Source: Thermoplasmata archaeon
Lineage (GTDB): Archaea > Thermoplasmatota > Thermoplasmata > RBG-16-68-12 > JAGMCJ01
Reading direction: 5' to 3'
Assembly (NCBI GenBank): GCA_023136265.1
Contig: JAGLRN010000069.1
Location: forward strand, 8,680-72,679
DNA length: 64,000 nucleotides
Position 1 is the stretch's first letter; every line of letters begins with the position of its first letter. A program made the position numbers and the translations under genes. Below the pieces are notes generated by a model. It made no database searches. It was not told where the DNA came from and was given only the letters and a program-made list of their open reading frames with translations. Below are positions 14,181 through 60,390 of the stretch, piece by piece.

Positions 14181-14187
14181 TTGCCTG

Positions 14188-21987: not shown

Positions 21988-21994
21988 TTAAATA
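21988..21994 (+). promoter_or_regulatory. TATA-like box (TTAAATA) about 32 nt upstream of cooT
   Basis: An AT-rich element within a GC-rich intergenic region, at an archaeal-promoter distance from the ATG at 22026. Confidence 0.3.
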
Positions 21995-22025
21995 CCTTCC
22001 TTACTTTCTCCGAGCCAGTGAGAAC

Positions 22026-22214
22026 ATGTGCGAATCCACTGTATACGTTGAGATGGGCGGAGAGGAGACCGAGCTCATGAAGGACGTCGCCAAGATCGAG
22101 GTGAACGGCAAGACGATAACCTGCATAGACATCATGGGCGAGATGAAGACCGTCCAGGGGACGGTGAAGAGAGCTGACTTCGTGAACCACCGGTTCCTCA
22201 TTTCCTCCAAGTAG
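22026..22214 (+). CDS. cooT: CooT-like nickel-binding CODH maturation factor (62 aa, N-terminal Met-Cys)
   Basis: MCESTVYVEMGGEETELMKDVAKIEVNGKTITCIDIMGEMKTVQGTVKRADFVNHRFLISSK: the invariant Cys2, the size, and the ...DLxxHRxxI tail typical of the CooT family. It sits immediately upstream of cooC. Confidence 0.6.
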   Translation: MCESTVYVEMGGEETELMKDVAKIEVNGKTITCIDIMGEMKTVQGTVKRADFVNHRFLISSK

Positions 22215-22221
22215 GTCTCCG

Positions 22222-23013
22222 ATGGCCCAGAGGATAGGAATTGCCGGCAAAGGCGGCGTGGGCAAGACCACGCTAGCGGGAACCCTGGCGAGACTTCTAG
22301 CCAGGCGCGGAAAGAAGGTGCTGGCGGTCGACATCGACCCGTCTCCCAGCCTCGCGTCCGCGGTGGGGATACCGGAGGAGGAGAGAAAGAACCTGGTCCC
22401 GCTCTCCCGCATGCTGGACCTCATAGAGGAGAGGACGGGCGTGAGGCCAGGATCCTCCTACGGACAGATGTTCAAGCTCAACCCGAAGGTGGACGACCTC
22501 GTTGACACGTACGGCGCGATCGCGAAGGACGGCGTGAGACTCATCGTCCTAGGTACCATCGAACTGGGCGGGAGCGGATGCTTCTGCCCCGAGAACGCGT
22601 TGCTGAAGCGGCTCCTGAGGCACCTCGTTCTGGACAGGGACGAGGTCCTGATAATGGACATGGAGGCAGGGGTCGAGCATCTGGGCAGGGGCACGGCGGA
22701 GGGCGTAGACGTTCTCGTCATCGTAGTGGAGCCCGGGACGAAGTCCATCGAGACGGCGGGGAGGATAAGGAAGCTGGCGGAGGACGTGGGCATCGGCAGG
22801 GTTGTCGCGGTCCTGAACAAATCGCTCGGACAGGACGACTTCACCCGCTCGAAGCTTGCGGACATAGGCATAGAGCTGGTCGGGTCGATTCCATATAGGC
22901 CGTGCATAATCGAGGCGGACATGAAGGATATCCCACCAATCGACGACGAGGACTGCTCGGAGATCGTCGCGGCAATCGAGGACATCGGGGAGAAACTGGG
23001 ACTCCCGGACTGA
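22222..23013 (+). CDS. cooC: CO dehydrogenase maturation ATPase CooC (MinD/ParA-type, Ni insertion)
   Basis: Walker A GIAGKGGVGKTT, deviant P-loop architecture, and the CxC nickel-binding motif GSGCFCPENALL. Confidence 0.85.
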   Translation: MAQRIGIAGKGGVGKTTLAGTLARLLARRGKKVLAVDIDPSPSLASAVGIPEEERKNLVPLSRMLDLIEERTGVRPGSSYGQMFKLNPKVDDLVDTYGAIAKDGVRLIVLGTIELGGSGCFCPENALLKRLLRHLVLDRDEVLIMDMEAGVEHLGRGTAEGVDVLVIVVEPGTKSIETAGRIRKLAEDVGIGRVVAVLNKSLGQDDFTRSKLADIGIELVGSIPYRPCIIEADMKDIPPIDDEDCSEIVAAIEDIGEKLGLPD

Positions 23014-23063
23014 ACGATAGCTTTTTTCACAGGAAGGCATTCCGCTCTGCAAGGAGGTGCAAC

Positions 23064-23246
23064 ATGCCATTCATAAACGTCTACATGTGGCCAAGGGACA
23101 AGGAGAAGAAGCAGAAGCTCGCGCGAGCTATAACGGACGCCTTCGTGAGAATTGCGGGTATCCCACCAGACTCGATCTGGATCGTCTTCAACGACGTGGA
23201 GAAGTCCAATTGGGCCTCGGCGGGAGAGCTTGTCTCCGAGGATTAG
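23064..23246 (+). CDS. 4-oxalocrotonate tautomerase-family protein (60 aa, Pro1)
   Basis: MPFINVYMWPRDKEKKQKLARAITDAFVRIAGIPPDSIWIVFNDVEK..., the tautomerase-superfamily beta-alpha-beta fold signature with Pro after the initiator Met. A strong SD AAGGAGGTG lies 5 nt upstream. Confidence 0.65.
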   Translation: MPFINVYMWPRDKEKKQKLARAITDAFVRIAGIPPDSIWIVFNDVEKSNWASAGELVSED

Positions 23247-23354
23247 CATCCGTCGCAGCAAGTCGAACTTCGTCTTTTGCCGAAGATGATTCGCAAAAGC
23301 CAGCATCTGGCGGTTCGTGAAATGGGAAAAGAATCGGTGGCCAAGTAGGTCAGG

Positions 23355-23362
23355 TTTATAAA
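23355..23362 (+). promoter_or_regulatory. TATA box (TTTATAAA) about 55 nt upstream of the GTG start of the ferredoxin/cooS/acs genes
   Basis: A perfect archaeal TATA consensus in the 170-nt intergenic region, with GGGGGT SD-like sequence just before the start at 23417. Confidence 0.45.
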
Positions 23363-23416
23363 CAAGCGGTGTATACGACATAACCGGATTGTTGGCCATC
23401 TAATCGGGGGTAGTGA

Positions 23417-23845
23417 GTGAAGAAAGTCAAGTTTGACAAGGATATCTGCATGAGTTGCAGGGCTTGCGAGACCGCGTGCGGGGAGAGGCATTCCGACCAC
23501 TTGAATTGGCCGGACATCCTTCTTACGGAGCCGAGGCCGATCCCGCGTGTCAGGGTCTCTCTGAAGAAGGGTAACCCGTACCTCGCAAGGTGCCAGTTCT
23601 GCAAGAACCCGAAGTGCATGGAGGTCTGCGAGTTCGATGCCATCACGCAGGAAGAGGACGGGTTCGTGAGATTCGACGCGGAGAAGTGCACGGGATGTTG
23701 GGAGTGCTTGGAGGCATGCCCATTCGACTGCATAGAGAAGGACGAGGTCAACGAAGTCGCGATCAGGTGCGATCTCTGCGAGGAGTATGAGAACCTAGCC
23801 TGCGTCTCGGCCTGTCCGACTGATGCTTTGACGGTGAAGGAATAG
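23417..23845 (+). CDS. cooF: CooF-like ferredoxin with four [4Fe-4S] cluster motifs
   Basis: Four Cys clusters: CMSCRACETAC, CQFCKNPKCMEVC, CTGCWECLEACP, CDLCEEYENLACVSACP. The gene has a GTG start. Confidence 0.7.
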   Translation: MKKVKFDKDICMSCRACETACGERHSDHLNWPDILLTEPRPIPRVRVSLKKGNPYLARCQFCKNPKCMEVCEFDAITQEEDGFVRFDAEKCTGCWECLEACPFDCIEKDEVNEVAIRCDLCEEYENLACVSACPTDALTVKE

Positions 23846-23855
23846 GAGGAATAAC

Positions 23856-25871
23856 ATGGCTAAGGAATCTGAAATGAAACAGAAGTCAGTAGACCCAGCG
23901 ACACTGGAGATGTTGGAGAAGGTGCGCGATTCGGACGTGGATGCCACAACGATGTGGGACCGCTACGAGACGATGCAGCCACAGTGCCGCTTCGGAGAGC
24001 TGGGAATATGCTGCACGATATGTCTTCAGGGACCGTGCAGGATCAATCCGTTCGGCAAGGAACCCTCGCGAGGCATATGCGGGGCGACGGCCTACACGAT
24101 CGTCTCGAGGAACCTTCTCAGGAAGATAGCGGCAGGATGCTCTGCCCACTCCGACCACGGAAGACACATAGCCCATACCATGAAGGCTCTTGTCGACGGA
24201 AAAGCCGACGCCTACTCGATCAAGGACGAGGACAAGCTCAGAGTCGTCGCGCAGAGGGTTGGCATAGATGTAGATGGAAAGGACACGATGGAGCTGACGA
24301 AGGAGCTTCTCGGGGAGGCATTCGAGGACTTCTCAAGGGTAGAGCACGAACCACTCACCTGGTTGCGGACCACGCTCACTCCCAGGAGGCTGGAAATGTT
24401 GGACAGATATGGTGTCCTTCCAAGCAACATCGATGCCGCGGTCGTGGAAATCATGCATCGCACCCACATAGGTGTGGATGCAGATCCCGTTCCCCTCATC
24501 TTCAGCGGGATAAAATGCGCTCTCGCCGATCTGGCCGGTGAGCACATATCCACGGACCTGAGCGACATCCTGTTCGGAACTCCCATGCTCACGTTCACTG
24601 AGTCGAACCTCGGTGTGCTCAAGAAGGAGTCCGTCAACATCGCGATGAACGGTCACAACCCCGTACTGAGCGAGATCATGTGCGATATTGCAGAGGAGAT
24701 GAAGGGTGCCGCCGAGGAAGTTGGAGCGGACGGCATAAACATCGTAGGGATATGTTGCACCGGAAACGAACTGCTCATGCGGCGGGGGATTCCGCTTGCG
24801 ACCAACTTCGCCTCCCAGGAGCTGGCCATCATGACTGGTGTCCTTGACGCCATGGTCATCGACTATCAGTGTATATTGCCCTCGCTTGGGATGTGGGCGA
24901 ACTGCTTCCACACGAAGCTGATATCGACGTCCGACCTCTGCAGGCAGACAGGTGATATCCACATAGAGTTCAATCCCGCGAGCGCGAAGGAGGATGCACG
25001 GAGGATACTCCTTCTGGCCATCAACGCCTACAAGGACAGGAATGAGAATGCCATTCACATACCGGATGTGAAGGAGACTTCCTGTGTCGGATTCAGCGTG
25101 GAACAGATCATGGAGATTCTGTCCAAGGCCTCCGATGATCCTCTTCAATATCTTGCGGACAAGCTCAAAGAGGGAAAGATCCAAGGATTCGCAGCACTCG
25201 TTGGGTGCAACAATGTGAAGACCTGCCATGACCTCAATCATCTGACCCTCGCAAAGGAGTTCATCAAGAACGATATCCTTGTCATCTCGACAGGCTGTGC
25301 CGCGGGCGCCTACGTCAGAGCGGGACTCACGAACTCCAAGGCGACCAAGGACCTCGCGGGAGAAGGTCTGAAGGAAGTGCTCACCGAGCTTGGAGAGAAG
25401 TTTGGCTTCGACGGCCCGTTCCCGCCCGTCTGGCACATGGGGTCCTGCGTTGATAACTCACGAATACACGACTTCATGACGATGCTCGCGAACAAGATGG
25501 GAATTGACATCAAGGACCTTCCCGTCGTGGCGAGTGCGCCCGAGGACATGAGCGAGAAGGCGGTCGTGATAGGGACGTGGCTGGTGGCGACTGGCTGGCC
25601 GACCCACGTGGCGGTGCTACCGTTCATACATGGAAGTCCCCTCGTGGTGCAGATAGCCGAGAACACCGCCCGCGACGTTTACGGAGGCTACTTCGTCTTC
25701 GAGGAGGACCCGGACGAAGCTGCCAGGAAACTGGTCAACATAGTGAAGAACCGACGCTGGAGGTTGGGCATTGGTGAGGACAAGGAGACCATCTATTGGT
25801 CCGGCGAGACCAAGGAGGATGTTTTCGCGGAGAAACCTGAGGTCGCGGCTGACGGAGGTGAGGAGGAATGA
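23856..25871 (+). CDS. cooS: Ni-dependent carbon monoxide dehydrogenase catalytic subunit (CooS/AcsA)
   Basis: 671 aa with D/B-cluster cysteines CRFGELGICCTICLQGPCRI, C-cluster region HSDHGRH, and CCTGNELLMRRGIPLATNFASQELA...GCNNV. Confidence 0.9.
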   Translation: MAKESEMKQKSVDPATLEMLEKVRDSDVDATTMWDRYETMQPQCRFGELGICCTICLQGPCRINPFGKEPSRGICGATAYTIVSRNLLRKIAAGCSAHSDHGRHIAHTMKALVDGKADAYSIKDEDKLRVVAQRVGIDVDGKDTMELTKELLGEAFEDFSRVEHEPLTWLRTTLTPRRLEMLDRYGVLPSNIDAAVVEIMHRTHIGVDADPVPLIFSGIKCALADLAGEHISTDLSDILFGTPMLTFTESNLGVLKKESVNIAMNGHNPVLSEIMCDIAEEMKGAAEEVGADGINIVGICCTGNELLMRRGIPLATNFASQELAIMTGVLDAMVIDYQCILPSLGMWANCFHTKLISTSDLCRQTGDIHIEFNPASAKEDARRILLLAINAYKDRNENAIHIPDVKETSCVGFSVEQIMEILSKASDDPLQYLADKLKEGKIQGFAALVGCNNVKTCHDLNHLTLAKEFIKNDILVISTGCAAGAYVRAGLTNSKATKDLAGEGLKEVLTELGEKFGFDGPFPPVWHMGSCVDNSRIHDFMTMLANKMGIDIKDLPVVASAPEDMSEKAVVIGTWLVATGWPTHVAVLPFIHGSPLVVQIAENTARDVYGGYFVFEEDPDEAARKLVNIVKNRRWRLGIGEDKETIYWSGETKEDVFAEKPEVAADGGEEE

Positions 25872-28024
25872 CCAAGGTCACACAGACGGAACTGTTCAGC
25901 ATGGCGATTTCCGGAGCCATAACGGCAACCGGCTACGCTGACGTTCTCCTGAACCGCGCCCTGAGGAAATACGGTCCTAACCAGACGATCGAGTATCCAG
26001 ACACGGGATACGAGCTTCCCTGCTTCTACGGCTGGACGACGACGCCCGTGAAGACGCTCAGTGACCTTCCCGCCCTCCTCGGAGAGGTCAGGGGGAAGAT
26101 AAGGCACGAGCCTACTCTCGAGAACGCGCTAACGGCCGGTGAGGCCACCATGTGGTCCGCCGAGATCGTGGAGGCGCTTCGGTACATCAATAACGATAAG
26201 CCGTTCGAGAACGAGGCCCCGCCAGGAAAGCAGGAGTACTGCGGTTTCGTGGGCGATCCCGTCCTCAGGAATCTGGGCATAGCGTTCGTCGACGATACCA
26301 TCCCTGGTGCTGTAGTCTTCGTCGGAAAGGCGAAGGACCCGGAGGCGCTAGCGAGGATAGTGAGGGACTTCCAGAACAAGGGCATGCTGCTCATGGCGAC
26401 ATTCGACATAATCAGGCAGCTCGAGGACCAGGGAATCAAGATGGGGACTGACATAATGCTCTTTCCCCTCGGCGAGTTCACGCAGGCGATACACGGCCTG
26501 AGCTTCGCCATCAGGGCCGCCCTCGCTTTCGGCGGGATAAAGCGCGGAGACCGAGAGGGACTGCTGAAATACCTCAAGACGAGACCCAAGGTCGTGGTGT
26601 TCCAGTTCGGCCCGCTCGACCAGATTAAGGTCGCAGCCGAGTTCGCCGTGATGTTCAACGGCTCCCCGACGATCACGGACCAGGATGTAGAGGAGATCCC
26701 GGGCAAGTACATCGTGCAGAAGGACTACGACCAGATGGTTCAGACGGCCATCGAAGTAAGGGACATGCAGGTCAAGCTCGCAGCCGTCGACATCCCGGTC
26801 CCGTACGGACCCGCGTTCGAGGGCGAGACCGTCAGGAAACCGGACACATACGTGGAATGCGGTGGACCCTCCAAGACGCCCGTCTTCGAGCTGGTGAAGA
26901 TGCGAGAGGCGGACGAGGTCGAGGACGGCAAGATAACCATGATCGGGAAGGATGTCGACGAGCTCGAGGAAGGGAGCGGCAGCCCGCTCGGGATCGTAGT
27001 CGAGGTTTACGGAAAGGACATGCAGAAGGACTTCGAGTCTGTCCTGGAGAGGAGGATACATCAGTTCATCAACTTCACCGAGGGCGGGTGGCACACGGGC
27101 CAGAGGAACCTTCTTTGGATAAGGCTCAGCAAGGACGGTGTCGGCCAGGGACTGAGGTTCAAGCACTTCGGCGACGTGCTGCACGCCAAGTTCCACGACG
27201 ACTTTGGCGGACTGTTGAGCCGTGTTCAGGTGACCATAACAACGGACCCGGCGGAAATCGAGAAGCACCTTCCGGAGGCGATGGAATCCTACGATTACAG
27301 GGACGAACGCCTGAGAGGCATGACCGACGAGGCCGTGGAAACGTTCTACACCTGCACTCTGTGCCAGAGCTTTGCCCCGAACCACGTGTGTATCATCACT
27401 CCCGAGAGGCTCGGGCTCTGCGGCGCCATCAACTGGCTGGACGCCAAGGCCAGTAATCAGATTACGCCGACGGGTCCGAATCAACCCATTGACAAGAAGA
27501 CCACTATAGAGGAGGTCAAGGGCCAGTGGGAGGGCGTGAACGAGGCGGTAATCGAGCACTCTCACGGGAAGCTGGACAAGTTCAACATCTACACCATGAT
27601 GGAGGACCCGATGACATCGTGCGGCTGCTTCGAATGCATCGTCGGCATAGTTCCTGAGGCGAACGGCGTCGTCGTTGTAAACCGGGAGCACGGCGGGATG
27701 ACGCCCCTGGGGATGAAGTTCTCCACGCTCGCTGGAACTGTGGGCGGCGGACTGCAGATGCCTGGGTTCATAGGCGTCGGAAGGTACTACCTACTGTCGA
27801 ACAAGTTCATAAGCGCGGATGGCGGATTCCAGAGGATCGTCTGGATGCCGAAGGAGCTCAAGGACGCGATGTACGACAAACTTAAAGAGAGAGCAGAGGA
27901 ATTGGGCATTCCCGATTTCGTGGACAAGATCGCTGACGAGACGGTCGCAACGGAATCGGCGGAGCTGCTTGAGTTCCTCGCAGAGAAGGAGCATCCAGCT
28001 CTGAAGTTACCATCTATGCTGTAG
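25868..28024 (+). CDS. acsB: Acetyl-CoA synthase catalytic subunit, full-length bacterial type (AcsB)
   Basis: 718 aa with the N-terminal domain present (SGAITATGYADVLLNRALRKYGP), the A-cluster motif TSCGCFECIVGI, FYTCTLCQSFAPNHVCIITPERLGLCGAINWLD, and C-terminal ...HPALKLPSML. It is collinear with the Moorella-type AcsB rather than the about 470-aa archaeal CdhC. Confidence 0.9.
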   Translation: MTKVTQTELFSMAISGAITATGYADVLLNRALRKYGPNQTIEYPDTGYELPCFYGWTTTPVKTLSDLPALLGEVRGKIRHEPTLENALTAGEATMWSAEIVEALRYINNDKPFENEAPPGKQEYCGFVGDPVLRNLGIAFVDDTIPGAVVFVGKAKDPEALARIVRDFQNKGMLLMATFDIIRQLEDQGIKMGTDIMLFPLGEFTQAIHGLSFAIRAALAFGGIKRGDREGLLKYLKTRPKVVVFQFGPLDQIKVAAEFAVMFNGSPTITDQDVEEIPGKYIVQKDYDQMVQTAIEVRDMQVKLAAVDIPVPYGPAFEGETVRKPDTYVECGGPSKTPVFELVKMREADEVEDGKITMIGKDVDELEEGSGSPLGIVVEVYGKDMQKDFESVLERRIHQFINFTEGGWHTGQRNLLWIRLSKDGVGQGLRFKHFGDVLHAKFHDDFGGLLSRVQVTITTDPAEIEKHLPEAMESYDYRDERLRGMTDEAVETFYTCTLCQSFAPNHVCIITPERLGLCGAINWLDAKASNQITPTGPNQPIDKKTTIEEVKGQWEGVNEAVIEHSHGKLDKFNIYTMMEDPMTSCGCFECIVGIVPEANGVVVVNREHGGMTPLGMKFSTLAGTVGGGLQMPGFIGVGRYYLLSNKFISADGGFQRIVWMPKELKDAMYDKLKERAEELGIPDFVDKIADETVATESAELLEFLAEKEHPALKLPSML

Positions 28025-28036
28025 GGGCTTGGTACA

Positions 28037-28999
28037 ATGGCATTGGAGTTGCCCAAGGAGAAGTGGGTAGGGAAGATTGGACAAGTCGTCATCGGAGCCC
28101 TCGAGAGCGAGGGGGGAACGCGGACGAGCAAAGTTGCCCTGGGAGGGGCAACGAGCCTGCCTTTCCTCGGCTTTGAGGGCGAGTATCCGAACGAGCCGCC
28201 GATAGGGATGGAGATTTTCGACATCGTCCGAGAGGACTATCCAGAGGTTGCGAGGAAGCCCTTCGAGGATGTCATCGACGACCCCGGTAAGTGGGCCAAG
28301 AAGTGCGTCGAGGAATACGGCGCGGACATGATCTGCATCAGGATGATCGGCACGAACCCGGAGGAGGAGAACCGCTCGGTCGAGGACGCTGAACAGACGA
28401 TCAAGGAACTCAAGGAAGCGGTCGGAGTCCCGCTCCTGATCTACGGCTCCGGAGATGAGGAGAAGGACGCCAAGGTCCTCGAGATGGCCTCGAACGTTAT
28501 GGCCGGCGAGAGATGCCTTCTCGGTCTCGCGGAGGAGGCCGCGTACAAGTCGATATCCGTCGCGACCATGTCCAACGACCATGGAATCGTGGCGTTCAGC
28601 AATCTGGACATCAACCTGGCGAAGCAGATGAACATCCTGCTCACGGATTTCGGTGTCAAGCTCGGGAACATCGTCATGGACCCGCTTCAGGCGGGCCTAG
28701 GATACGGGCTCGAGTACTCGTACTCGGTCATCGAGAGGATCCGGCTCGCCGCGCTCATGGGAGATAAGATTCTTCAGGTTCCCATGATGTGCGGGACAGC
28801 GCGCGTCTGGAACGCGAGGGAGGCGTTCAAGGAGGACGCCGACACCGGGGATTCCACCTCCCGAGCGATATTCTGGGAGGCCACGACCGGTCTGTCCGCC
28901 CTACTGGCGGGCGCGGACGCGCTTCTCATGAGACATCCGGATGCCGTCAAGCACGTCAAGGAGTCCGTCAAGAACCTCTACGGAGGAGGCGAGCAGTAA
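28037..28999 (+). CDS. acsD: Corrinoid iron-sulfur protein small subunit (AcsD/CdhD-like TIM barrel, bacterial length)
   Basis: 320 aa, MALELPKEKWVGKIGQVVIGA...VALGGATSLPFLGFEG, typical of the CoFeSP delta subunit. Confidence 0.8.
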   Translation: MALELPKEKWVGKIGQVVIGALESEGGTRTSKVALGGATSLPFLGFEGEYPNEPPIGMEIFDIVREDYPEVARKPFEDVIDDPGKWAKKCVEEYGADMICIRMIGTNPEEENRSVEDAEQTIKELKEAVGVPLLIYGSGDEEKDAKVLEMASNVMAGERCLLGLAEEAAYKSISVATMSNDHGIVAFSNLDINLAKQMNILLTDFGVKLGNIVMDPLQAGLGYGLEYSYSVIERIRLAALMGDKILQVPMMCGTARVWNAREAFKEDADTGDSTSRAIFWEATTGLSALLAGADALLMRHPDAVKHVKESVKNLYGGGEQ

Positions 29000-30333
29000 T
29001 GGCGCTCACTGCCCTGGACATCTACAAGAAACTGCCGCAGACGAACTGCGGGAAATGTGGGTTCCCAACATGCCTGGCATTCGCGATGCAGCTGGCCAAC
29101 AAGAAGGCGAGCATCGACGCCTGTCCGGACGTCTCGGACGAGGCAAAGGAACTGCTGGAATCCTCAGCCGCACCGCCGATAAAACTGGTGAAGGTGGGCT
29201 CTGGGGACAGGGAGATTGAGATGGGAGACGAGGTCGTCATGCATAGGCACGAGAAGACGTTCTACCATCCTGTCGCGTACGCCCTGATGGTCGATGATGA
29301 CTCTCCAGACATAGAGTCCAAGGTCCAGGCGGCCGGGGAGATGAAGTTCGAGCGAGTGGGGCAGGAGATGCAACTCGACATGATCGCAATTCGCTCGAAA
29401 TCGGACGATCCAGCGAAGTTCTCCTCTGCCGTCTCCGCGGTGAAGGGAAAGACGTCAGTACCGCTCGCGCTCGTGTCGCAGAACCCAGCGGTCATAGAGG
29501 AAGGGCTGAAGGTCTGCGGCTCTGACAGACCGCTCATTCACGCCGCGACCAAAGACAACTTCGAGAAGATGGCGGAGCTCGCGAAGGCGAACAACTGCCC
29601 GCTGGCGGTCCTCGAGGACTCGGGACTGGAGGAGCTCGCTGAACTGAGCAAGAAGGTGAAGGAGGCGGGCGTGGAGGACATAGTCCTTGACCTCGGCAAG
29701 AAACCCCTGGGCAAGCTGTTCCAGGAGCTCACGCTGATCAGGCGGCTCGCCATCAAGAAGCTCTTCAGACCTCTCGGCTATCCGATCATCATGTTCGCCG
29801 AGGGCGAGGGGGCAAGCGAGGGTCTGGAAGCCGCGATCGGAACCCTGAAGTACGCTTCCATCGTCGTTATGAAGGAGGCGGACAGGGCCATCATGTATCC
29901 GCTGTTCACGCTCAGGCAGAACATCTACACAGACCCGCAGAAGCCCATACAGGTGAAGCCTGGCATATACGAACTCAACGGACCCGCCGAGGACTCACCG
30001 GTGATGATCACCACGAACTTCTCGCTCACTTACTTCACCGTCGCGGGGGACATCGAGACCAGCAAGGTCCCGAGCTATCTCCTCGTGGCCGATTCCGAGG
30101 GTCTGTCCGTGATGACGGCGTTCGCGGCGGACAAGTTCACCGCCGACACCGCTACGGAGCTGATAGAGAGCTGCGGGATTGCGGACAAGGTCAATCACAA
30201 GAAGATCATCATCCCCGGACAGGTGGCGAGGATGAGTGGAAAGCTCAACGAGAACTCCGGCTGGGAAGTGGTCGTGGGACCGAGGGATTCCTCCGGCCTT
30301 CCGAAGTACCTGAGAGAATACACTAGCGCCTAG
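28999..30333 (+). CDS. acsC: Corrinoid iron-sulfur protein large subunit (AcsC/CdhE) with an N-terminal [4Fe-4S] motif
   Basis: Starts MALTALDIYKKLPQTNCGKCGFPTCLAFAMQLA (Cx2Cx4C...C), with the ATG overlapping the acsD stop (TAATG), followed by TIM-barrel and B12-binding regions. The listed ORF has a spurious 70-aa N-terminal extension. Confidence 0.85.
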   Translation: MALTALDIYKKLPQTNCGKCGFPTCLAFAMQLANKKASIDACPDVSDEAKELLESSAAPPIKLVKVGSGDREIEMGDEVVMHRHEKTFYHPVAYALMVDDDSPDIESKVQAAGEMKFERVGQEMQLDMIAIRSKSDDPAKFSSAVSAVKGKTSVPLALVSQNPAVIEEGLKVCGSDRPLIHAATKDNFEKMAELAKANNCPLAVLEDSGLEELAELSKKVKEAGVEDIVLDLGKKPLGKLFQELTLIRRLAIKKLFRPLGYPIIMFAEGEGASEGLEAAIGTLKYASIVVMKEADRAIMYPLFTLRQNIYTDPQKPIQVKPGIYELNGPAEDSPVMITTNFSLTYFTVAGDIETSKVPSYLLVADSEGLSVMTAFAADKFTADTATELIESCGIADKVNHKKIIIPGQVARMSGKLNENSGWEVVVGPRDSSGLPKYLREYTSA

Positions 30334-31473
30334 CTACATCTGCGTCGGGTCCAGGTAGCTCGCTTCCTTCTTCCTGATCGGCTCGAGTGACTTGTCCACG
30401 GTCTTTTTCATCTGCAGACCGGAGACGTGCATCAGAGTGTCCCCGAGGTCGTCCTCGACGTTCATCGAGCACAGGCATGGATAGTGATGGTGCGCCAGCC
30501 CCGCCTTTTCCACGGCATCCCTGACCTCAGTTCCTGGGAGTTTATCGGCAACGAACCTCCCGCAGCCGCAGGGCGAGTCACGCACGACCTCCGTCCCCGT
30601 CACGGTGTTCTTCTCGACCTTCACGTCCAGTATGGGCCTTCCGAAGAATTCAGCGAACTTGTCGATGATAGGATTGCCCACCGCATCGAGGGTGCAAAAG
30701 GGCCTCGGGAACGCGGTTGCGATTCCGGTCTTTGAGAGTTCCCGCTTGATTTGCGTCTTCATCCCGAGTGGTAGCCACTGTGAGCTGTCCACCGGTGCGA
30801 TTAATGCCATCGCATCTGCGGCCTTCACTATGTCTACGATCAGTTGAGCGGCGCTCGAGTTCTCCTGCAGGGCGAGCACTAGGTCCGCTTTGGGCACGGA
30901 CTCTGGCAGGAACTCAGCGGGGTCGTCGATGACGAGTGGCAGGTCCACCGGGAGCATCAGTGTCTCCACCTTGAAGCCCTCGGGACCGTTGTCCTGAACA
31001 TTCTTGGCGATGCGCTCACCGTACTCACCCTGAACGAGCGCGAGAATCGTCATTTCTCCTTTGCCTACCCGCTCGAGTTCCTCGGCGGTCAGCTCCCGCT
31101 TCTGGATTTCCTCCTCCTTCTCCGCGGCCCGCTCGACGTGATAGGTCGGCCCTCTCTCCAGAGCCTCAAGAAGCCGCTTCTCGAAGGCCTCCATTTCGTC
31201 CCAATCTAGCTCTTCGCCTATGTCCAGAGCGATCGCCGAGTGCTTCGCCTCCCCCTGGAGCGTGTTCTTCTCGCCCGCGAGAACGGAGATCTCCGTCTCT
31301 CCAACGATCAATCGGAGGTTCGAGAAGACCTCCTTCTTCTTCTGAGCCTTGAGATATACCCTCTCAGGAGTGTAGTCGAAACGGCACGATCCTGTGCTGA
31401 GCGCCGCCGATCTGAGGGCCGCAACGACATCGCTTCCAGAGTATTCCTTGCCGAATGTGACTTCCTTTCTCAT
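30334..31473 (-). CDS. Hypothetical protein with a C-terminal Cys/His motif, embedded in the acs cluster
   Basis: 379 aa with no recognisable catalytic motif. C-terminal SPCGCGRFVADK...HHHYPCLCS. It is convergent with acsC with zero gap, and sits upstream of acsF/cooC2 on the same strand. Confidence 0.4.
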   Translation of the reverse strand: MRKEVTFGKEYSGSDVVAALRSAALSTGSCRFDYTPERVYLKAQKKKEVFSNLRLIVGETEISVLAGEKNTLQGEAKHSAIALDIGEELDWDEMEAFEKRLLEALERGPTYHVERAAEKEEEIQKRELTAEELERVGKGEMTILALVQGEYGERIAKNVQDNGPEGFKVETLMLPVDLPLVIDDPAEFLPESVPKADLVLALQENSSAAQLIVDIVKAADAMALIAPVDSSQWLPLGMKTQIKRELSKTGIATAFPRPFCTLDAVGNPIIDKFAEFFGRPILDVKVEKNTVTGTEVVRDSPCGCGRFVADKLPGTEVRDAVEKAGLAHHHYPCLCSMNVEDDLGDTLMHVSGLQMKKTVDKSLEPIRKKEASYLDPTQM

Positions 31474-31506
31474 GTTCTGCCTCTGCCGACTAGAAGTTGG
31501 CGCTGG

Positions 31507-32253
31507 CTAGATGTTCAGCTTGGCGAGGATCTCCTTGGCCCGCGCGTAGGCGACGCTGTCCGTGGGGAGGTCGATGAGCGGATCCCCGGTCAGGGAGAGC
31601 TCTTTTATGTTCTGGTCCTCGGGGAACACTTCCCTGCAGTTAAAACCAGCCTCCTCGATGACCGGGCTCAGGAGCTCCGGGATCTCGGCGGTGCGGCTGA
31701 TGACCAGGCATCTATCCTTCACCTTCAGGTCTAGGCTACCGCTCAGTTCCCTGATCCTTCCAGCGGTCACCACGCCGTGTTTGGTCGGGTCCGACAGTAT
31801 GAACATCATGTCGACGTTCCTTGTGGTCCTCCTGCTGAGGTGCTCCATCCCGGCCTCGTTGTCTATGACCACGTAATCGTAGTTCGCCGAGAGCTGGTCC
31901 AGATACGTCCGAAGGATGTTGTTGATGTAGCAGTAGCAACCCGGACCCTCCTGTCTGCCCATCGCGACTAGGTCGAACTTGTCGCCCTCGACCATGGCCA
32001 TACGGAGGTTATAGTCCACGTAGTCCTGCTTGGACATAGCGGGGGATGAATCACCAACGTTCTTGAGCAGGTCCTCTCTGAGATCGCCGATCGTCTGGTT
32101 CACTTCGACCCCGAGCATCACGTCGAGCGTCGAGTTTGGGTCTGCGTCGACCGCCAGAACCACGGACTTCTCGCTGAGCGCCTTTATCAGAAGCGTCGCG
32201 AACGTGGACTTCCCCACGCCGCCCTTGCCCGAAACGGCGATGGTCTTTCCCAT
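31507..32253 (-). CDS. acsF: Second CooC-family Ni-insertion ATPase (AcsF-like)
   Basis: MGKTIAVSGKGGVGKST Walker A and the CxC motif GPGCYCYINN. A GGAGGA SD lies 6 nt upstream of the internal ATG; the listed ORF begins 9 codons earlier. Confidence 0.8.
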   Translation of the reverse strand: MGKTIAVSGKGGVGKSTFATLLIKALSEKSVVLAVDADPNSTLDVMLGVEVNQTIGDLREDLLKNVGDSSPAMSKQDYVDYNLRMAMVEGDKFDLVAMGRQEGPGCYCYINNILRTYLDQLSANYDYVVIDNEAGMEHLSRRTTRNVDMMFILSDPTKHGVVTAGRIRELSGSLDLKVKDRCLVISRTAEIPELLSPVIEEAGFNCREVFPEDQNIKELSLTGDPLIDLPTDSVAYARAKEILAKLNI

Positions 32254-32254
32254 C

Positions 32255-33256
32255 TCAGTCCTCCAGACCGTACTTCTCACGCATGTGGCTGGACAGTTCC
32301 CTCGTCATCCTCAGGGCCGCCTCCGCCTGTTCCTCGCTCAGGCCTGATAGGCCGCACATGGGCGTCACAAGGGACTGCCTGCGAATCCTTTCCTCGTCCA
32401 CACCTTTCCCTGCCAGCAGTCCAATATTACTTTCAAGCTTCCCTATAAGACTTTGCAGATTCTCAGCTGCAAAGGCGTCGGGTGTCGATGGGACCACGCC
32501 CCACGCGATAAGGCCTCCCCGGTCCAGGAAGGCTGACACATCCTCGGGATAGAGCGAGAGCGTGTGACCATAGTTGTACGCGTCGAAGGAGAGCATGCTG
32601 GCAGGAGACCGCAGGATGAGCGGCCATTCCGTGTTCCCGCAGCAGTGGAACCCGCTCAGCCCGCCAAGGTCGTTGACCACGTCCTCGAACAATGTGAGGA
32701 CCTCGTCCTTGCTGATGTTCAGGAATGCCGAGCCATACATGTTGAGATACGGCTCGTCGAAGACGACCAGTGTGTTCTCGTGAAGACCGGAGAGGCGGTT
32801 TGCCATCCAACGCGCGGTCATGTTCACCGTCTTCGTGACGATCTCCTTGTACGTGTCGTCGTACAGAAGCGATCTCTTGTCCTCGTACGTCAGGTTGAGA
32901 CCCAGGCTGATGGGTCCCGTGACCTGCCCTCGAACAATCTTGGCGGGGGTTCCCTTCACCGCCCTCTCGAACTCGAAGAATGCGGTGGCGAACTCGGGTG
33001 ACAGCGAGAAGTATTCCAAATCCTCCTCAATGACCTTCTCGTAGAAGGACTCGATCTCAGATGCCTCCCCCGGTTCTACGAATATCCTGTCATCCTCCAT
33101 CCGGACGCCAGGGATGCTCTGCGAGTACTGGGCGTACATGTTCTCCTTGAATCCCCGGCGGGGAAGCTGTGGCCAGGTCGGGATCTCGGGCGTGTACTTC
33201 AGAACGAGCTCCACGGCCTTTTTGACGTCGGTGTGCGGGAGGCTTCCGACGGTCAT
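32255..33256 (-). CDS. Core MetE-like (cobalamin-independent methionine synthase C-terminal domain / URO-D fold) Zn-dependent methyltransferase
   Basis: LVVFDEPYLN (MetE IQIDEPAL-like), His-x-Cys FHCCGN, and a distal Cys in TPMCGLSGL (MetE PDCGL-like). 333 aa, without the N-terminal folate-binding barrel of full MetE. Confidence 0.6.
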   Translation of the reverse strand: MTVGSLPHTDVKKAVELVLKYTPEIPTWPQLPRRGFKENMYAQYSQSIPGVRMEDDRIFVEPGEASEIESFYEKVIEEDLEYFSLSPEFATAFFEFERAVKGTPAKIVRGQVTGPISLGLNLTYEDKRSLLYDDTYKEIVTKTVNMTARWMANRLSGLHENTLVVFDEPYLNMYGSAFLNISKDEVLTLFEDVVNDLGGLSGFHCCGNTEWPLILRSPASMLSFDAYNYGHTLSLYPEDVSAFLDRGGLIAWGVVPSTPDAFAAENLQSLIGKLESNIGLLAGKGVDEERIRRQSLVTPMCGLSGLSEEQAEAALRMTRELSSHMREKYGLED

Positions 33257-33279
33257 CGGAAGGAAATCCGCACGGAAGG

Positions 33280-35184
33280 TCAGATGACCAGCTCCCTGGC
33301 GCTCGGGAACTTCTCCAGGTTGGTATGAGGCAAGAACATGGCAGAGGTGAACTCATTGAAGAATGACGGTGTGACGCTAAGCTCGATGTAGGTCATCTTC
33401 TTGGCGATGTCTGTCGCCTCCTGCTTGCTCTTCTTCGACAGGATCGTCAAACGGGCGCCCGCCAAAGACCCGTTCCCGATGAACCTGAACTTGTTAGGGT
33501 CCACGTCAGGAAGCAGGCCGAGCCATATGCTCTTCCTCGTGTCCAGATAGTTCCCGAAGCCACCAGCGATGAATATCTGCTCGACATCGTCGAAGGAGTA
33601 GTTCATCGTCTTCAGTAGCACGGTCGCGGCCGCGTAGACCGCCGCCTTCGTTCGGATGATGTTCCTGATGTCGACCTCCGTGATGACCATGTCCTTGTAT
33701 ATCCTGGTCTCGTCCGCCCAGACGACGACGAACTCCTTGCCTTCGGGGCCGTCACGGACCCTCGGGATCTTGAGCGGTCTGATCCTCCCTGAACGGTCGA
33801 TGACACCGTGCATGAACATCTCCGCGAGCAGGTCGATGAGACCGGTGCCGCAGATGCCTTTCGGCTTCACATCCCCTATCGTCTTGTACTTGACCTCAAG
33901 GTCCGTGGTGAGAGCCACTTTCTCTATCGCACCGACCATCGCCCGGATGCCGTAATCGACCTCGCCGCCCTCGAACGCCGGGCCCGCCGAGCACGAACAG
34001 GAGACCATCCAGTCCTTGTTCCCGAGAACGACCTCGCCGTTCGTCCCGACGTCTATCAGCATGGAGAGCTTGTCCGTCTTGTGCAGCGCTGACGCCAGCA
34101 CATCCGCCGTGATGTCCCCGCCGACGTAGCTGCTGCGACACGGCAGGATGTAGACGTAGCCCTCCGGGTTGATCTTGATGCCAGTCTCCCTGGCCTTGAT
34201 GAGCGGGAAGAAGTTCGCCGACGGGATGTACGGCTCCCGCCTGATGTGCGCGGGGTTCAGTCCGAGAAGCAGATGAGTCATCACCGTGTTGCCAGCCGCG
34301 GCGGCGTAGCAGATCTCGTTCCGACGCACTCCCGCATCGTCCATCATCTCCTTGAGGAGGTAGTTAATCGTCTCCACAATCAGCATTCTGAGAACCTTCA
34401 GCCCGCCCTTCTCCTCCTCGGCGTGAAGAATCCTGGTGAGGACGTCCTCGCCGTGGATTACCTGCTTATTATAGGCTGCCTTCTTCGCGACTATCTCCCC
34501 GCTACTCAGGTTCACGAGCTCGGCGACGACAGTCGTGGTTCCCACGTCCACCGCCAGACTGAAGTTCCTCGCGGACGTATCTCCGCCCTGCAGATGCACG
34601 AGCTCGTGGCACTCGCCGTCCTCCACGACCGTGGCCGTCACGTCCCACTCGCTCTTCCTGAAGAGGTTGCTCATCCTCCTCATCACGGGCAGGGGGCCCA
34701 TGATGTCCTCGATTCCGTGGTCGCTCAGCGCTCGCTTCAGGCGGTCCAGATCGCTCAGGTTGTCCGTCAGCGTCGGTTCGCTCAGCTCAAAATAGAATTT
34801 CATGATGGGCGGGTCCAGCTTCTCCGCCTCCACGACGTCGGCCTTCATCAGTATCTGAAGCATCCCGACGCGGCTCTCTTCAGGGACGAGGACTTCGACA
34901 TCGCCCTCCGCCCTGGTCATGCATGCGAGGTGATAACCCTTCTTGATCTCGCTAGGTTCGAGAAGCTCCGTCTTCTCGGCGGTAACGTCTCCCGCCTGAA
35001 CGATGACCTTGCACTTGCCGCACTTGCCTCGACCGCCACAGATGGAATCGACGTAGATGTCGGCCTCGATCGCTGCGTCGAGGAGGTCCGTGCCCTTGTC
35101 GACCTCTATCGTCTTGTCGTCTGGTAGGAACCTGACCTGCACCTTCTTAGCCATGTCTCCCAGCATTCCGAAGTCTTGCGCCAT
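33280..35184 (-). CDS. acsV: Reductive activator of the corrinoid Fe-S protein (RACo/AcsV): an N-terminal [2Fe-2S] ferredoxin fused to an ASKHA-fold ATPase (DUF4445)
   Basis: N-terminal plant-type ferredoxin VDSICGGRGKCGKCKV...HLACMT followed by about 500 aa of ATPase-like domain. 634 aa. Confidence 0.75.
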   Translation of the reverse strand: MAQDFGMLGDMAKKVQVRFLPDDKTIEVDKGTDLLDAAIEADIYVDSICGGRGKCGKCKVIVQAGDVTAEKTELLEPSEIKKGYHLACMTRAEGDVEVLVPEESRVGMLQILMKADVVEAEKLDPPIMKFYFELSEPTLTDNLSDLDRLKRALSDHGIEDIMGPLPVMRRMSNLFRKSEWDVTATVVEDGECHELVHLQGGDTSARNFSLAVDVGTTTVVAELVNLSSGEIVAKKAAYNKQVIHGEDVLTRILHAEEEKGGLKVLRMLIVETINYLLKEMMDDAGVRRNEICYAAAAGNTVMTHLLLGLNPAHIRREPYIPSANFFPLIKARETGIKINPEGYVYILPCRSSYVGGDITADVLASALHKTDKLSMLIDVGTNGEVVLGNKDWMVSCSCSAGPAFEGGEVDYGIRAMVGAIEKVALTTDLEVKYKTIGDVKPKGICGTGLIDLLAEMFMHGVIDRSGRIRPLKIPRVRDGPEGKEFVVVWADETRIYKDMVITEVDIRNIIRTKAAVYAAATVLLKTMNYSFDDVEQIFIAGGFGNYLDTRKSIWLGLLPDVDPNKFRFIGNGSLAGARLTILSKKSKQEATDIAKKMTYIELSVTPSFFNEFTSAMFLPHTNLEKFPSARELVI

Positions 35185-35231
35185 AGATAAACGTTTTCGA
35201 CTGCCTGCAGGGAGAAGCGCCTTCTCTTCCG

Positions 35232-36059
35232 CTAGGTGGATACTGCCTTGTCAATCGCCTTCGAGAGATCGTACCCGCCAGGGACTGGTTGGCCATGGGC
35301 AACGACCGTTCCGTCCTCGATCCGGACCTCCCCCTCAGCGAATACTCTCAGTGTATGAACGATGAGCGGCAGCTCGCGTATGAAGCCCAGCCTGCGTATC
35401 TCCGCGAACAGTGGATTGCCCTCTCCGTCTTTCTTGGCGATGTCTCCCACCGTCTCGCTCTCCAATCTCGCGTCGAAGTCCCGCCAAAGCGGTCCCAAAT
35501 CCCCGCCAACGATCGGGAAAACACAGTACGTTATCACGGGTCCGCGGTCCAACTCCTCCGTGACGAGGTGCAGCATCACCCCTGTCCTGTCCACTCTTTT
35601 TTCGAGAAGCTCCCATATCACCTCCTGCCACGTTCCTTTGGGCCCGTCCGGAGCGGCTGGATGGAGGTTGATCATATCGTAGACCTTGCACATCTCGTCG
35701 CCGACAATGAGCATATAGCCCGCCAGAACGCCGAGGTCCATCTCGTGCCCCTCGAGGCGCTTCACTATCTCCCTGTCGTACTCCCTCCTCCACTGCTTCA
35801 GTATCCCCTCGTCCTTCCTGCCCTCGGCCCTCATCTCCGGCTTGAACTTGCTCGAGGAGAACTGGATGAGCGTGTATCCGAAGCTCCTCACAAGATCGAA
35901 GAAAAGGTCGCTCTGCTCGAACTCGCCGTCCTCGCGGTTGCTGAACACGAAGGATATCTTCCCTGGTATCGTCCCGTCCTCAATCCCGTCGTGCGCTTCG
36001 ATGAGTAGCTCCCGCGCGGCGGGGTCCCTTCCCGTGGAGAACCATCCAATCCTGAACAT
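35232..36059 (-). CDS. PurN-like formyltransferase-family protein
   Basis: INLHPAAPDGPKGTWQEVIWELLEKRVDRTGVMLHLVTEELDRGPVITYCVFPI resembles the formyl_trans_N HxSLLP...G...H.v.e.lD.GpII motif. Confidence 0.55.
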   Translation of the reverse strand: MFRIGWFSTGRDPAARELLIEAHDGIEDGTIPGKISFVFSNREDGEFEQSDLFFDLVRSFGYTLIQFSSSKFKPEMRAEGRKDEGILKQWRREYDREIVKRLEGHEMDLGVLAGYMLIVGDEMCKVYDMINLHPAAPDGPKGTWQEVIWELLEKRVDRTGVMLHLVTEELDRGPVITYCVFPIVGGDLGPLWRDFDARLESETVGDIAKKDGEGNPLFAEIRRLGFIRELPLIVHTLRVFAEGEVRIEDGTVVAHGQPVPGGYDLSKAIDKAVST

Positions 36060-36110: not shown

Positions 36111-36737
36111 CTAGGAGTGGTGCTTCCCGGATTCCTGCGGGATCCCCTTCTTCAGCTTCTCATATCTCTCTCGATAGAGTTTCAAGCAGGACTCGCAGCA
36201 GAGGTAATGAGTTCTCCCGTCCATCTTGAGCGTGACAGGATCGTCCGTGATAGGTTTCCTGCACAGGTAGCAGGGAACGACTATCGATATCCCTTCCGAG
36301 ATGACCGCATCGGGCTCCTTCTTCGTCGTCCGAACGACGCGGTCGATGGAGTATCTGTCGATCTCCTCCAGCCCCTCAAGCCAGGCAAGGAAGCTGTTGA
36401 TCGTAGCTTCGCTTTCGGATACAAGCCTGCACATGAGCTTGGAGCCGCTGAGGACGAGGACCTCACGGATGTTCTCCTTCTCCGAAAGGCTCTTGGCCAG
36501 CTTCTCCAGGTGCTTCGGCTGACATTCTACCGAGACAATCGAGGTGGTCTCCCGGATCGCTTCCGTATCGATCAATGCCGAGTATCCTCTGATGACTCCC
36601 CGTTCCTCCAAAGCCTTGATCCTCGAACTCACGGTCGGAGTGCTGACACCGATGGTCTTGCCAAGCTCCCTGAAAGAGATCCGGGCATCCTCCTGAAGCT
36701 GCTTCAGTATTCTCGCGTCGGTCTCGTCGAGTTCCAT
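36111..36737 (-). CDS. Lrp/AsnC-family transcriptional regulator with a C-terminal TRASH metal-binding domain (CopR-like)
   Basis: N-terminal HTH MELDETDARILKQLQEDARISFRELGKTIGVSTPTVSSRIKALEE, a RAM-like middle region, and C-terminal CYLCRKPI...THYLCCESC (TRASH Cx2C...Cx3C). Confidence 0.75.
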   Translation of the reverse strand: MELDETDARILKQLQEDARISFRELGKTIGVSTPTVSSRIKALEERGVIRGYSALIDTEAIRETTSIVSVECQPKHLEKLAKSLSEKENIREVLVLSGSKLMCRLVSESEATINSFLAWLEGLEEIDRYSIDRVVRTTKKEPDAVISEGISIVVPCYLCRKPITDDPVTLKMDGRTHYLCCESCLKLYRERYEKLKKGIPQESGKHHS

Positions 36738-36870
36738 GGTTTGGTACTAGGCAGCCTCACCTATTATACCTTTGTAAAGCGGGCGGTTGCATCTCCTTAC
36801 AAACGTGAGAGGGAAGTAGGATAGATTGGCTTTCCCTAGTACCCTCCGTACTTCCTGAGAGTGAATCTCA

Positions 36871-48494: not shown

Positions 48495-48507
48495 ATGACC
48501 ACCGTGT

Positions 48508-52698: not shown

Positions 52699-52775
52699 CG
52701 TTTCGCCCCGCCTCTCCCCTGTTAAGCCAGCAGAATGACAGTCTGGATAATAACGGACTATTAAAGTGCATCGTA

Positions 52776-60130: not shown

Positions 60131-60390
60131 CGGTTTTCCACCTTGCTCCCCAACGTCTCAAGCGGTAGATAATCCATTCGTTTATGGTGGTTTCTGCGGG
60201 TGCCGCTTCCCCGCTCTGCCCACCTCGGACGTCCTGTGGTCTGCCCATCCACCCAGCCAAAGGGTCCCGTCCATAACTATAAATGTCCGCGACAATTTGT
60301 GGCATTCAGCATCTGGCGGGGTCTTTCACCTGCGCTGGGGGGTCGAAGATGGAGCATAGTCGATGTTTGTCCGATGTGGGCATTGTTGTG

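Follow-up and report, generated by a model that had tools for sequence, protein, structure and literature searches.

A 64,000-nucleotide (nt) stretch of contig JAGLRN010000069.1 from an uncultured Thermoplasmata archaeon of marine sediment (GenBank assembly GCA_023136265.1), referred to below as the window, carries a CODH/ACS gene cluster (for carbon monoxide dehydrogenase and acetyl-CoA synthase). Judging from the sequence, this cluster very probably encodes a complete and apparently functional Wood-Ljungdahl carbonyl branch of the AcsB/CooS type, long resident in its Thermoplasmata host. It occupies positions 22026-36059 of the window (coordinates without a contig name are window positions throughout) and consists of two abutting convergent operons. 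The gene order is cooT-cooC-tautomerase followed by ferredoxin-cooS-acsB-acsD-acsC on the plus strand, and formyltransferase-acsV(RACo)-mesB-cooC2/acsF-DUF166 on the minus strand. Gene calls combined the open reading frame (ORF) listing with Pfam and NCBIfam profile searches, and all 13 genes named in the original prediction proved to be present, intact, and in the order claimed. AcsB-type ACS in Thermoplasmatota and Methanomassiliicoccales has already been published, and the cluster confirms a known trait. According to the available part of a 2026 preprint (PMC13370988), AcsB occurs in Methanomassiliicoccales, Thermoplasmatota, and other archaea; the accessible text of PMC9239135 describes clade A metagenome-assembled genomes (MAGs) of "Ca. 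Yaplasmales" as having the whole Wood-Ljungdahl set, with CooS/CooF and AcsB/E among its members, and clades B and C as lacking it. What the window adds is detail, namely MesB, DUF166, CooT, two CooC paralogues, and an unlinked AcsE-MetFV module, in a gene-by-gene record of a widespread marine-sediment Thermoplasmata genus with an apparently complete folate-based Wood-Ljungdahl pathway and an AcsB-type enzyme. Such a record is relevant to the question of which organisms of anoxic sediments fix CO2 or produce or use up acetate, and to the discussion of how archaea and bacteria came to share out the two forms of this ancient enzyme.

Subunit type and methyl branch

The Ni-CODH catalytic subunit CooS/AcsA (23856-25871, plus strand) scores 738.6 bits with TIGR01702 (cut-off, 478), as opposed to 76.7 bits with the cdhA model TIGR00314 (cut-off, 781.3). 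The end of its gene is overlapped by 4 nt by the start of acsB (25868-28024, plus strand), which encodes a three-domain acetyl-CoA synthase of 718 amino acids (aa) that reaches 998.4 bits with NF040764 (cut-off, 800), residues 14-717 aligning with model positions 1-704/705. The Pfam domains of AcsB are CODH_A_N, CdhC, and ACS_CODH_B_C, the first of which (PF18537, 95.9 bits, residues 27-107) is the N-terminal domain that the protein had been said to possess; the archaeal cdhC model TIGR00316 matches only the catalytic A2-A3 part (461 bits, residues 307-713). The short-form small subunit of the corrinoid iron-sulfur protein, AcsD (28037-28999, plus strand; NF003376, 385.7 bits; cut-off, 280), is of bacterial length, as claimed, with 320 aa; its alignment with the cdhD model TIGR00381 (389 positions) spans positions 65-373, the long CdhD N terminus being absent. 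The large subunit, AcsC (28999-30333, plus strand; 444 aa), scores 603 bits with NF003195. Searches of the window genome found no match to CdhB (PF02552) and no cdhA above the cut-off (the best score was 36 bits, on CooS itself). By these profile matches, the subunits are of the AcsA/CooS-AcsB-AcsC-AcsD (bacterial) type and not of the five-subunit archaeal acetyl-CoA decarbonylase/synthase (ACDS) type, just as had been proposed from the sequence.

The residues expected of active enzymes are retained. In AcsB, Cys residues 496, 499, 508, 518, and 585 are invariant in 107 aligned rows and C587 is found in 99% of them, with a C-G-C motif at 585-587; these are presumably the A-cluster ligands. CooS keeps 13 conserved Cys/His residues (C44, C52, C53, C56, C61, C75, H267, C300/301, C339, C451, C481, and C531; 98 to 100% conserved in 48 rows), which we take to be the ligands of the B, C, and D clusters. 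The N-terminal C17, C20, C25, and C42 of AcsC are also kept, as they are in 97 to 100% of 60 rows.

The methyl group would be supplied by genes located elsewhere in the genome. Formate-tetrahydrofolate ligase (Fhs, FTHFS) is encoded on contig C46 (713 bits), where the gene is cut by the contig end, and contig C86 carries a row of genes for MetF (136 bits), MetV (DUF5981, 126.8 bits), and an MvhD/ferredoxin protein. Divergent from metF-metV and unlinked to the cluster is a gene for an AcsE-like methyltransferase (C86:3908-4711; NF005719, 292.6 bits; cut-off, 259). Of the enzymes of the tetrahydromethanopterin (H4MPT) route, Mch (PF02289) and Ftr (PF01913) were each found in none of 21 genomes, the methanogen controls being positive, and Mer (TIGR03555) was not found in the one genome searched for it, that of the window. 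The genome-wide search for one-carbon (C1) enzymes that the original prediction had called for turned up fhs and metF, and folD in congeners, with mch, ftr, and mer not found. On this gene content the methyl branch is assigned to the folate-dependent type, as had been suggested; the PurN-like formyltransferase gene that had been offered as its marker does not serve as one (see below). A tetrahydrofolate (H4folate) methyl branch has been described in Thermoprofundales MAGs (PMC6461988).

Several other genes of folate and formate metabolism lie on the same contig. An FdhD gene (PF02634, 180 bits) and a MobA-like gene are found at 13401-14748, 7 kb upstream of the cluster, though no molybdopterin enzyme was found in the assembly. 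A minus-strand gene at 14750-18409 encodes a 1,219-aa serine hydroxymethyltransferase fused to GcvT-like aminomethyltransferase domains, a folate-linked C1 enzyme near the cluster, and PurH and a FolC-like ligase are encoded at the far end of the contig. The pathway genes are more clustered in two genomes of family f52 than in the window genome: the genes for an FDH-like (formate dehydrogenase-like) enzyme, folD, fhs, metF, mesB, DUF166, and acsB share one contig, within ∼60 kb in G419 (C54) and ∼78 kb in G408 (C99).

Distribution, origin, and host of the cluster

Of 401 genomes sampled from the phylum, 42 have AcsB, the window genome included, as do 7 of 7 same-genus genomes, where it is full length, has open reading frames, and is 83 to 98% identical to the window protein. 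Partial matches in the 401 genomes are contig-end fragments, with the N-terminal halves on other contigs (4 genomes), and there was no match confined to the CdhC-like (two-domain) part. When species-representative genomes were scanned with AcsB, 595 matches were confirmed, and the best 80 of these comprised 19 archaeal ones, all from Thermoplasmata, Thermoplasmatota, or Methanomassiliicoccales (56 to 99% identity), and 61 bacterial ones, among which full-length AcsB proteins were at most 55% identical. A divergent AcsB-like protein (34 to 35% identity to the window AcsB) is encoded in all six genomes of genus g15 of family f2 (G116, G136, G144, G152, G236, and G287); these genomes are small, and the match begins at about residue 127, the N terminus being different or missing.

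Phylogenies of AcsB, CooS, and AcsC, as the original prediction had advised, separate the Thermoplasmatota from every bacterium sampled by a single branch with good support. The AcsB tree was built with FastTree from 107 rows, 56 of them bacterial, each from a locus that covered 80% or more of the query without an internal stop; a branch with a support of 99 sets all 56 bacterial rows apart from the others. An IQ-TREE analysis (LG+G4, ultrafast bootstrap) of 54 rows (27 from archaea and 27 from bacteria), chosen by hand so that the FastTree clades were represented, recovered a single archaea-bacteria split with support of 100/99 that was present in 100% of 200 bootstrap trees. The same split appears in the FastTree trees of CooS (9 archaeal versus 39 bacterial rows; support, 98) and AcsC (14 versus 46; support, 96). 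All four trees are unrooted. Because of this agreement and the distribution among congeners, the cluster appears to have long travelled as a unit inside Thermoplasmatota, and on the sequence evidence it is regarded as long inherited within the phylum and not as a recent bacterial import. The original prediction had left open whether the cluster was acquired horizontally or native to the lineage; its 7 of 7 congeners, the 42 of 401 genomes, and the three sets of trees favor the native alternative and speak against a recent import.

Several observations limit the case for a complete, functional, and long-resident pathway. FolD was not found in the 92%-complete window assembly (19.8 bits, below the cut-off), and neither was Fdh-alpha or any other molybdopterin enzyme, hence no FwdB in the window genome either. 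In two marine-sediment runs labelled as RNA-Seq, contigs that are 95 to 99% alike extend over 29 and 15, respectively, of the 30 bins of the cluster; this is a weak hint of transcription only, because carry-over of DNA into such libraries is uncontrolled, with no silent stretch as a control. Lacking a root, the trees do not fix the direction or the age of a possible interdomain transfer, and their bacterial rows are the nearest matches to the window AcsB, an unbalanced set from which Chloroflexota and Desulfobacterota are missing. The cluster is patchy within the order, with AcsB in 7 of 7 genomes of family f1, 2 of 3 of family f52, and none of 10 from five other families. Finally, the AcsB tree sets the window genus outside a clade (95/96) that joins genomes of other classes with Methanomassiliicoccales.

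With regard to the missing enzymes, FolD is encoded in 7 of 7 congeners, where its gene adjoins fhs wherever both are on one contig, and a molybdopterin (FDH-like) enzyme scoring ∼300 bits is found in 6 of 7. The FDH-like gene lies on the same contig as folD-fhs, ∼9 kb away in G405 and ∼24 and ∼37 kb away in G419 and G408, respectively. Since congeners carry these genes near fhs and contig C46 ends inside fhs, the FolD and FDH-like genes of the window genome are most likely located past the point where C46 stops.

The patchiness bears on how the f1/f52 lineage came by the cluster. That it was obtained from another Thermoplasmatota lineage, and not by vertical descent accompanied by losses in the sister families, is a possibility to be taken seriously, if somewhat short of an even chance. 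It would account for the gaps in the order, for the identical distribution of MesB and DUF166 (10 of 21 genomes), and for an AcsB tree in which the genus groups (98/96) with G010, which belongs to a different class, away from the Methanomassiliicoccales of its own class. On the other side, the branch leading to G010 is long (0.5), the AcsB tree is unrooted and unreconciled with a species tree, and large pathways that are sensitive to oxygen are commonly lost. As the distribution is patchy and the gene tree departs from the kinship labels, a within-phylum transfer into the f1/f52 lineage is plausible, and the sequences make it and vertical descent with losses equally plausible.

As to the deeper past, an ancient interdomain transfer may have occurred, a possibility kept alive by the lack of a root; no archaeal CdhC to serve as an outgroup was found among 120 matches to the A2-A3 part of AcsB, all of which were of the AcsB type or fragments. 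It is doubtful that the Thermoplasmatota AcsB/CooS complex represents an ancestral archaeal form that predates the split of the two enzyme types and was never imported from bacteria. The archaeal sequences do group in a single clan that excludes all bacteria sampled in the AcsB, CooS, and AcsC trees, the cooC2-DUF166 pair is arranged as beside the archaeal ACDS of Methanococcus, and the root of the ACS tree is left open in the available part of the 2026 preprint (PMC13370988), all of which would fit such an origin. Were this so, "bacterial-type" would be a misnomer, and an ACS with three domains could be the earlier form.

A recent acquisition from a bacterium, that is, a fresh genomic island, is highly improbable. 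It would be in line with subunit types that are classically termed bacterial and with the absence of the cluster from 10 of 10 sampled genomes of the five sister families. However, among the best 80 of 595 matches no full-length bacterial AcsB exceeds 55% identity to that of the window (as opposed to 56 to 99% for Thermoplasmatota), all sampled bacteria lie across one 100/99 branch in the AcsB tree, with which the CooS and AcsC trees concur, and the cluster shows no GC deviation. In addition, the order cooS-acsB-acsD-acsC with convergent cooC2-mesB-acsV is as in Methanomassiliicoccales MAGs and unlike that in Bacillota and Actinomycetota.

That the host is an archaeon is indicated by sequence markers: a partial 16S rRNA gene on contig C53 scores 1118.8 bits with the archaeal model RF01959, the winner of the clan competition, and the nearest named holders of AcsB (among the best 80 of 595 matches) are Thermoplasmata MAGs, with 94% and 87% identity. 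The window contig (C87; 79.7 kb) has a GC content of 57.7%, compared with 56.9% for the genome. One Thermoplasmata MAG (L049) has the whole cluster together with the upstream ubiE and PEBP genes, as in the window. Mis-binning of a bacterial contig is very unlikely because L049 has the same cluster and flanks: the assembly is a MAG of 120 contigs with its 16S rRNA gene on a different contig, but its estimated contamination is 0.75%, C87 itself bears regulators of Haloferax-named Pfam families (TRASH_HVO_1752_C, DUF7343, HTH_HVO_0163_N, and HVO_A0261_N), the cluster is found in seven other assemblies of the genus, and public Thermoplasmata archaeon records have it with identical flanks.

Accessory genes and predicted operation of the pathway

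The 333-aa protein encoded at 32255-33256 on the minus strand, previously labelled coreMetE, has no match among Pfam or NCBIfam models. Judging from its predicted structure, it is a MesB-type core methionine synthase. The AlphaFold (AF2) model, made from 24 aligned homologues, has a predicted local distance difference test (pLDDT) score of 89.6, and in Foldseek searches it retrieves the catalytic domains of MetE at the top (E value, 4e-9; probability, 1.00), followed by single-domain methionine synthases and then UroD and MtaA. Residues H204, C206, D225, C301, and D167 are invariant in the 24 sequences, and S5 is found in at least 90% of them; compared with the available part of PMC7857596, these are the published zinc- and homocysteine-binding positions of MesB minus 10. 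The identification is drawn from fold and residues, which bear out the earlier label, because sequence searches of the PDB were weak, the only matches being to a phage tail protein (E value, 0.0033) and, with a profile, to 3rpd (E value, 0.021); both were discarded. Homologues are encoded at the equivalent place in Methanomassiliicoccales loci (39 to 44% identity) and in acs clusters of Actinomycetota (37 to 43% identity), with none in the Bacillota loci compared. For Methanomassiliicoccales, the accessible text of PMC7857596 has MesB as the only such enzyme and proposes a corrinoid protein as the methyl donor.

The gene at 30334-31473 (minus strand), which abuts acsC without a gap on the opposite strand, was listed in the original prediction only as "hyp"; its 379-aa product is a DUF166 protein (PF02593, 174.5 bits, residues 146-364) with an N-terminal extension of ∼140 aa, and sequence searches found no relative of solved structure. 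It is a candidate CODH/ACS accessory factor. The cooC2 gene lies 33 nt 5' of it on the same strand, opposite the catalytic operon. DUF166 and MesB are each found in exactly those related genomes that have AcsB and in none of the 11 AcsB-negative ones; because the genomes are kin, this co-occurrence amounts to few independent events. In Methanococcus maripaludis, according to the available part of a preprint (10.1101/2024.03.05.583561), duf166 (MMP_RS05055 type) is located beside cooC2, and its deletion abolishes CO2 fixation. Weak DUF166 homologues (30 to 34% identity) are also encoded near bacterial acs clusters in three Armatimonadota loci (L088, L089, and L123), and because of them the link between DUF166 and CODH/ACS may reach beyond archaea.

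Maturation of the two metalloenzymes would involve three further genes. The first of the plus-strand genes, cooT (22026-22214), encodes a predicted nickel chaperone for CODH (62 aa, with Cys2; PF10133 CooT, 64.1 bits) whose homologues are found 5' of cooC in Thermoplasmata and Methanomassiliicoccales loci. The gene had been predicted, but with a start at 21988, which falls on an upstream TTAAATA motif; the sequence-based start is at 22026. It is followed by cooC1 (22222-23013, plus strand), coding for a P-loop Ni-insertion ATPase with CbiA/ParA-type P-loop domains, a GKGGVGK P-loop, and a CxC motif at residue 120. The second paralogue, the cooC2/acsF-like P-loop ATPase gene (31507-32280, minus strand; true start probably at 32256), encodes AAA_31 and CbiA domains with a P-loop and a CxC motif at residue 115. 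In Bacillota loci the best homologue of cooC1 is 5' of cooS, the position of the CODH maturase, and that of cooC2 lies between acsV and acsD, the place of acsF. The reductive activator of the corrinoid protein, AcsV/RACo (33280-35184, minus strand), has all four Pfam domains (Fer2, RACo_linker, Raco_middle, and RACo_C_ter) above their cut-offs and scores 674 bits with NF040756, under the cut-off of 800.

From the established biochemistry of these families, the pathway would be expected to operate as follows. CooS would interconvert CO2 and CO, with electrons passing via the small ferredoxin, and AcsB would join the CO with CoA and a methyl group carried by the AcsC/AcsD corrinoid iron-sulfur protein. 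The latter would be charged by AcsE with the methyl group of methyl-H4folate, itself the product of the folate branch encoded elsewhere in the genome (Fhs, presumably FolD, MetF-MetV-MvhD, and AcsE), while RACo would re-reduce oxidized corrinoid. CooT and CooC1 would load nickel into CODH, CooC2/AcsF would mature ACS, probably together with the DUF166 protein, and MesB would divert corrinoid-borne methyl groups to methionine synthesis. The acetyl-CoA could be converted to acetate and ATP by an ADP-forming synthetase, which is encoded in the genome (555 bits, just under the cut-off of 567), or to pyruvate by 2-oxoacid:ferredoxin oxidoreductases, for which there are five POR_N loci.

As regards direction, the evidence leans toward reductive flux (CO2 fixation or an electron sink that ends in acetate) or bidirectional flux. 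A mainly oxidative pathway, in which acetyl-CoA is cleaved to CO2 and the electrons enter a respiratory chain, is the less likely course, although CODH/ACS and the folate branch are reversible in established biochemistry. The ADP-forming acetyl-CoA synthetase and the several 2-oxoacid:ferredoxin oxidoreductases fit fermentative acetate production instead, and, as acetogens do, the organism pairs MetF with MetV and an MvhD-like protein; neither point is decisive.

The two runs also contain the following genes. A 275-aa PurN-like formyltransferase (Formyl_trans_N, 51.1 bits) is encoded by the first gene of the minus-strand run (35232-36059); it scores 63.7 bits with the PurN model TIGR00639, under the cut-off of 150.1, and keeps the INLHP and EELD motifs, which we take to be the Asn-His and Asp catalytic motifs of PurN, with the usual SLLP stretch replaced by AAPDGP. 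It is the sole Formyl_trans_N match in the window genome and on sequence grounds is most likely the glycinamide ribonucleotide (GAR) transformylase of the organism, serving purine synthesis. Near the cluster it is found in just one other locus, that of a same-genus relative, and it is not a conserved member of the cluster. The 60-aa 4-oxalocrotonate-tautomerase-family protein (23064-23246, plus strand; PF01361, 56.7 bits) begins with Met-Pro (Pro1) and scores 51.2 bits with the NCBIfam model DmpI, under the cut-off of 70; a longer ORF in another frame (23057-23320) was rejected as the gene at this site, having no family match. A tautomerase gene is found near the cluster only in the same-genus loci L048 and L049. 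The small gene that opens the catalytic operon (23417-23845, plus strand) encodes a 142-aa CooF-like poly-[4Fe-4S] ferredoxin (Fer4_11, 53.4 bits; Fer4, 54.8 bits). The 170-nt gap 5' of it holds a TATA-like motif, TTTATAAA; such motifs were picked by eye, without a statistical test. The other intergenic gaps within each run are from -26 to 58 nt, and such tight spacing suggests two or three transcription units.

Beyond the cluster, a gene for an Lrp/AsnC-TRASH regulator (36111-36737, minus strand; PF13404, 63 bits; PF24273 TRASH, 46.8 bits), which had been noted as an archaeal flank and was found there, is located 51 nt 5' of the formyltransferase gene on the same strand. It lies between the minus-strand run and a divergent FTR1-type iron permease gene (36111-37824 for the pair) and could regulate either or both; no such regulator is found beside the cluster in the other loci compared. 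Very large predicted surface proteins of 1,239 to 1,611 aa with FG-GAP, Big_13, PKD, and fn3 domains are encoded at 43731-57449 and 60283-63999.

Comparison with known systems

The enzymes of Moorella thermoacetica and Carboxydothermus hydrogenoformans are the type of the bacterial CODH/ACS, which includes the corrinoid iron-sulfur protein (CoFeSP), RACo, AcsF/CooC, and AcsE. As judged from family models, the window cluster shares with this type a CooS-type CODH, a three-domain AcsB, the 4-Cys N terminus of AcsC, a short AcsD, RACo, two CooC paralogues, and an AcsE, the last encoded elsewhere in the genome. It differs in its archaeal host, in the unlinked acsE, and in having mesB, DUF166, and cooT in the cluster. 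Its order, cooS-acsB-acsD-acsC, contrasts with acsB-acsC-acsV-cooC2-acsD (or acsB-acsC-acsD) in Bacillota and acsD-cooS-acsB-acsC in Actinomycetota.

The AcsB-type systems of Methanomassiliicoccales and other Thermoplasmatota fall into the same clan as that of the window in the AcsB, CooS, and AcsC trees. Methanomassiliicoccales loci have the convergent cooC2-mesB-acsV arrangement in common with the window (e.g., L054), and two of them, L052 and L054, also have cooT-cooC upstream; tautomerase and formyltransferase genes flank the cluster only in the window genus. The separate cooS and acsB of the window genus correspond to an in-frame fusion in many relatives: in 15 of 25 loci (L006-L014, L050, and L052-L056; the AcsB sequences of L009 and L053 are identical and may come from the same genome), the two genes are in one frame with no intervening stop, e.g., YWDGTTAAEERPKISQQELFKK, which predicts a CooS-AcsB fusion protein of ∼1,370 to 1,390 aa. 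A full-text literature search gave no paper evidently about such a fusion. A different arrangement, acsB-acsD-acsC with convergent cooC2-mesB-acsV, is found in MAGs of Methanomassiliicoccaceae, Methanomassiliicoccus, and Methanomassiliicoccales (L057, L058, L060-L063, L065, and L084; acsB-acsD alone in L057, which has a short downstream flank). No cooS match was found in the compared flanks of these loci (up to 10 kb), which thus carry an ACS/CoFeSP/MesB module without an adjacent CODH, whereas the window cluster includes cooS.

Compared with the archaeal ACDS (CdhABCDE), the window system would perform the same chemistry, and the A2-A3 part of its AcsB matches cdhC, but it has an additional AcsB N-terminal domain and an AcsD without the long CdhD N terminus, and no CdhA, CdhB, or H4MPT enzymes (Mch, Ftr, and Mer) were found. 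The cooC2-DUF166 pair is located beside the operon and on the opposite strand both here and, according to the available part of the preprint (10.1101/2024.03.05.583561), next to the ACDS genes of M. maripaludis.

With MesB as characterized by Price et al. 2021 (PMC7857596, available part), who set 173 bits against DET0516 of D. mccartyi as the minimum score, the window protein shares the MetE-like barrel, the HCDC zinc site, and the Ser/Asp homocysteine residues, a likeness seen in fold and positions. As with mesB of Dehalococcoides mccartyi, its gene is found inside an acs cluster. The D. mccartyi enzyme is reportedly a core methionine synthase, said to have been described by Deobald in 2020.

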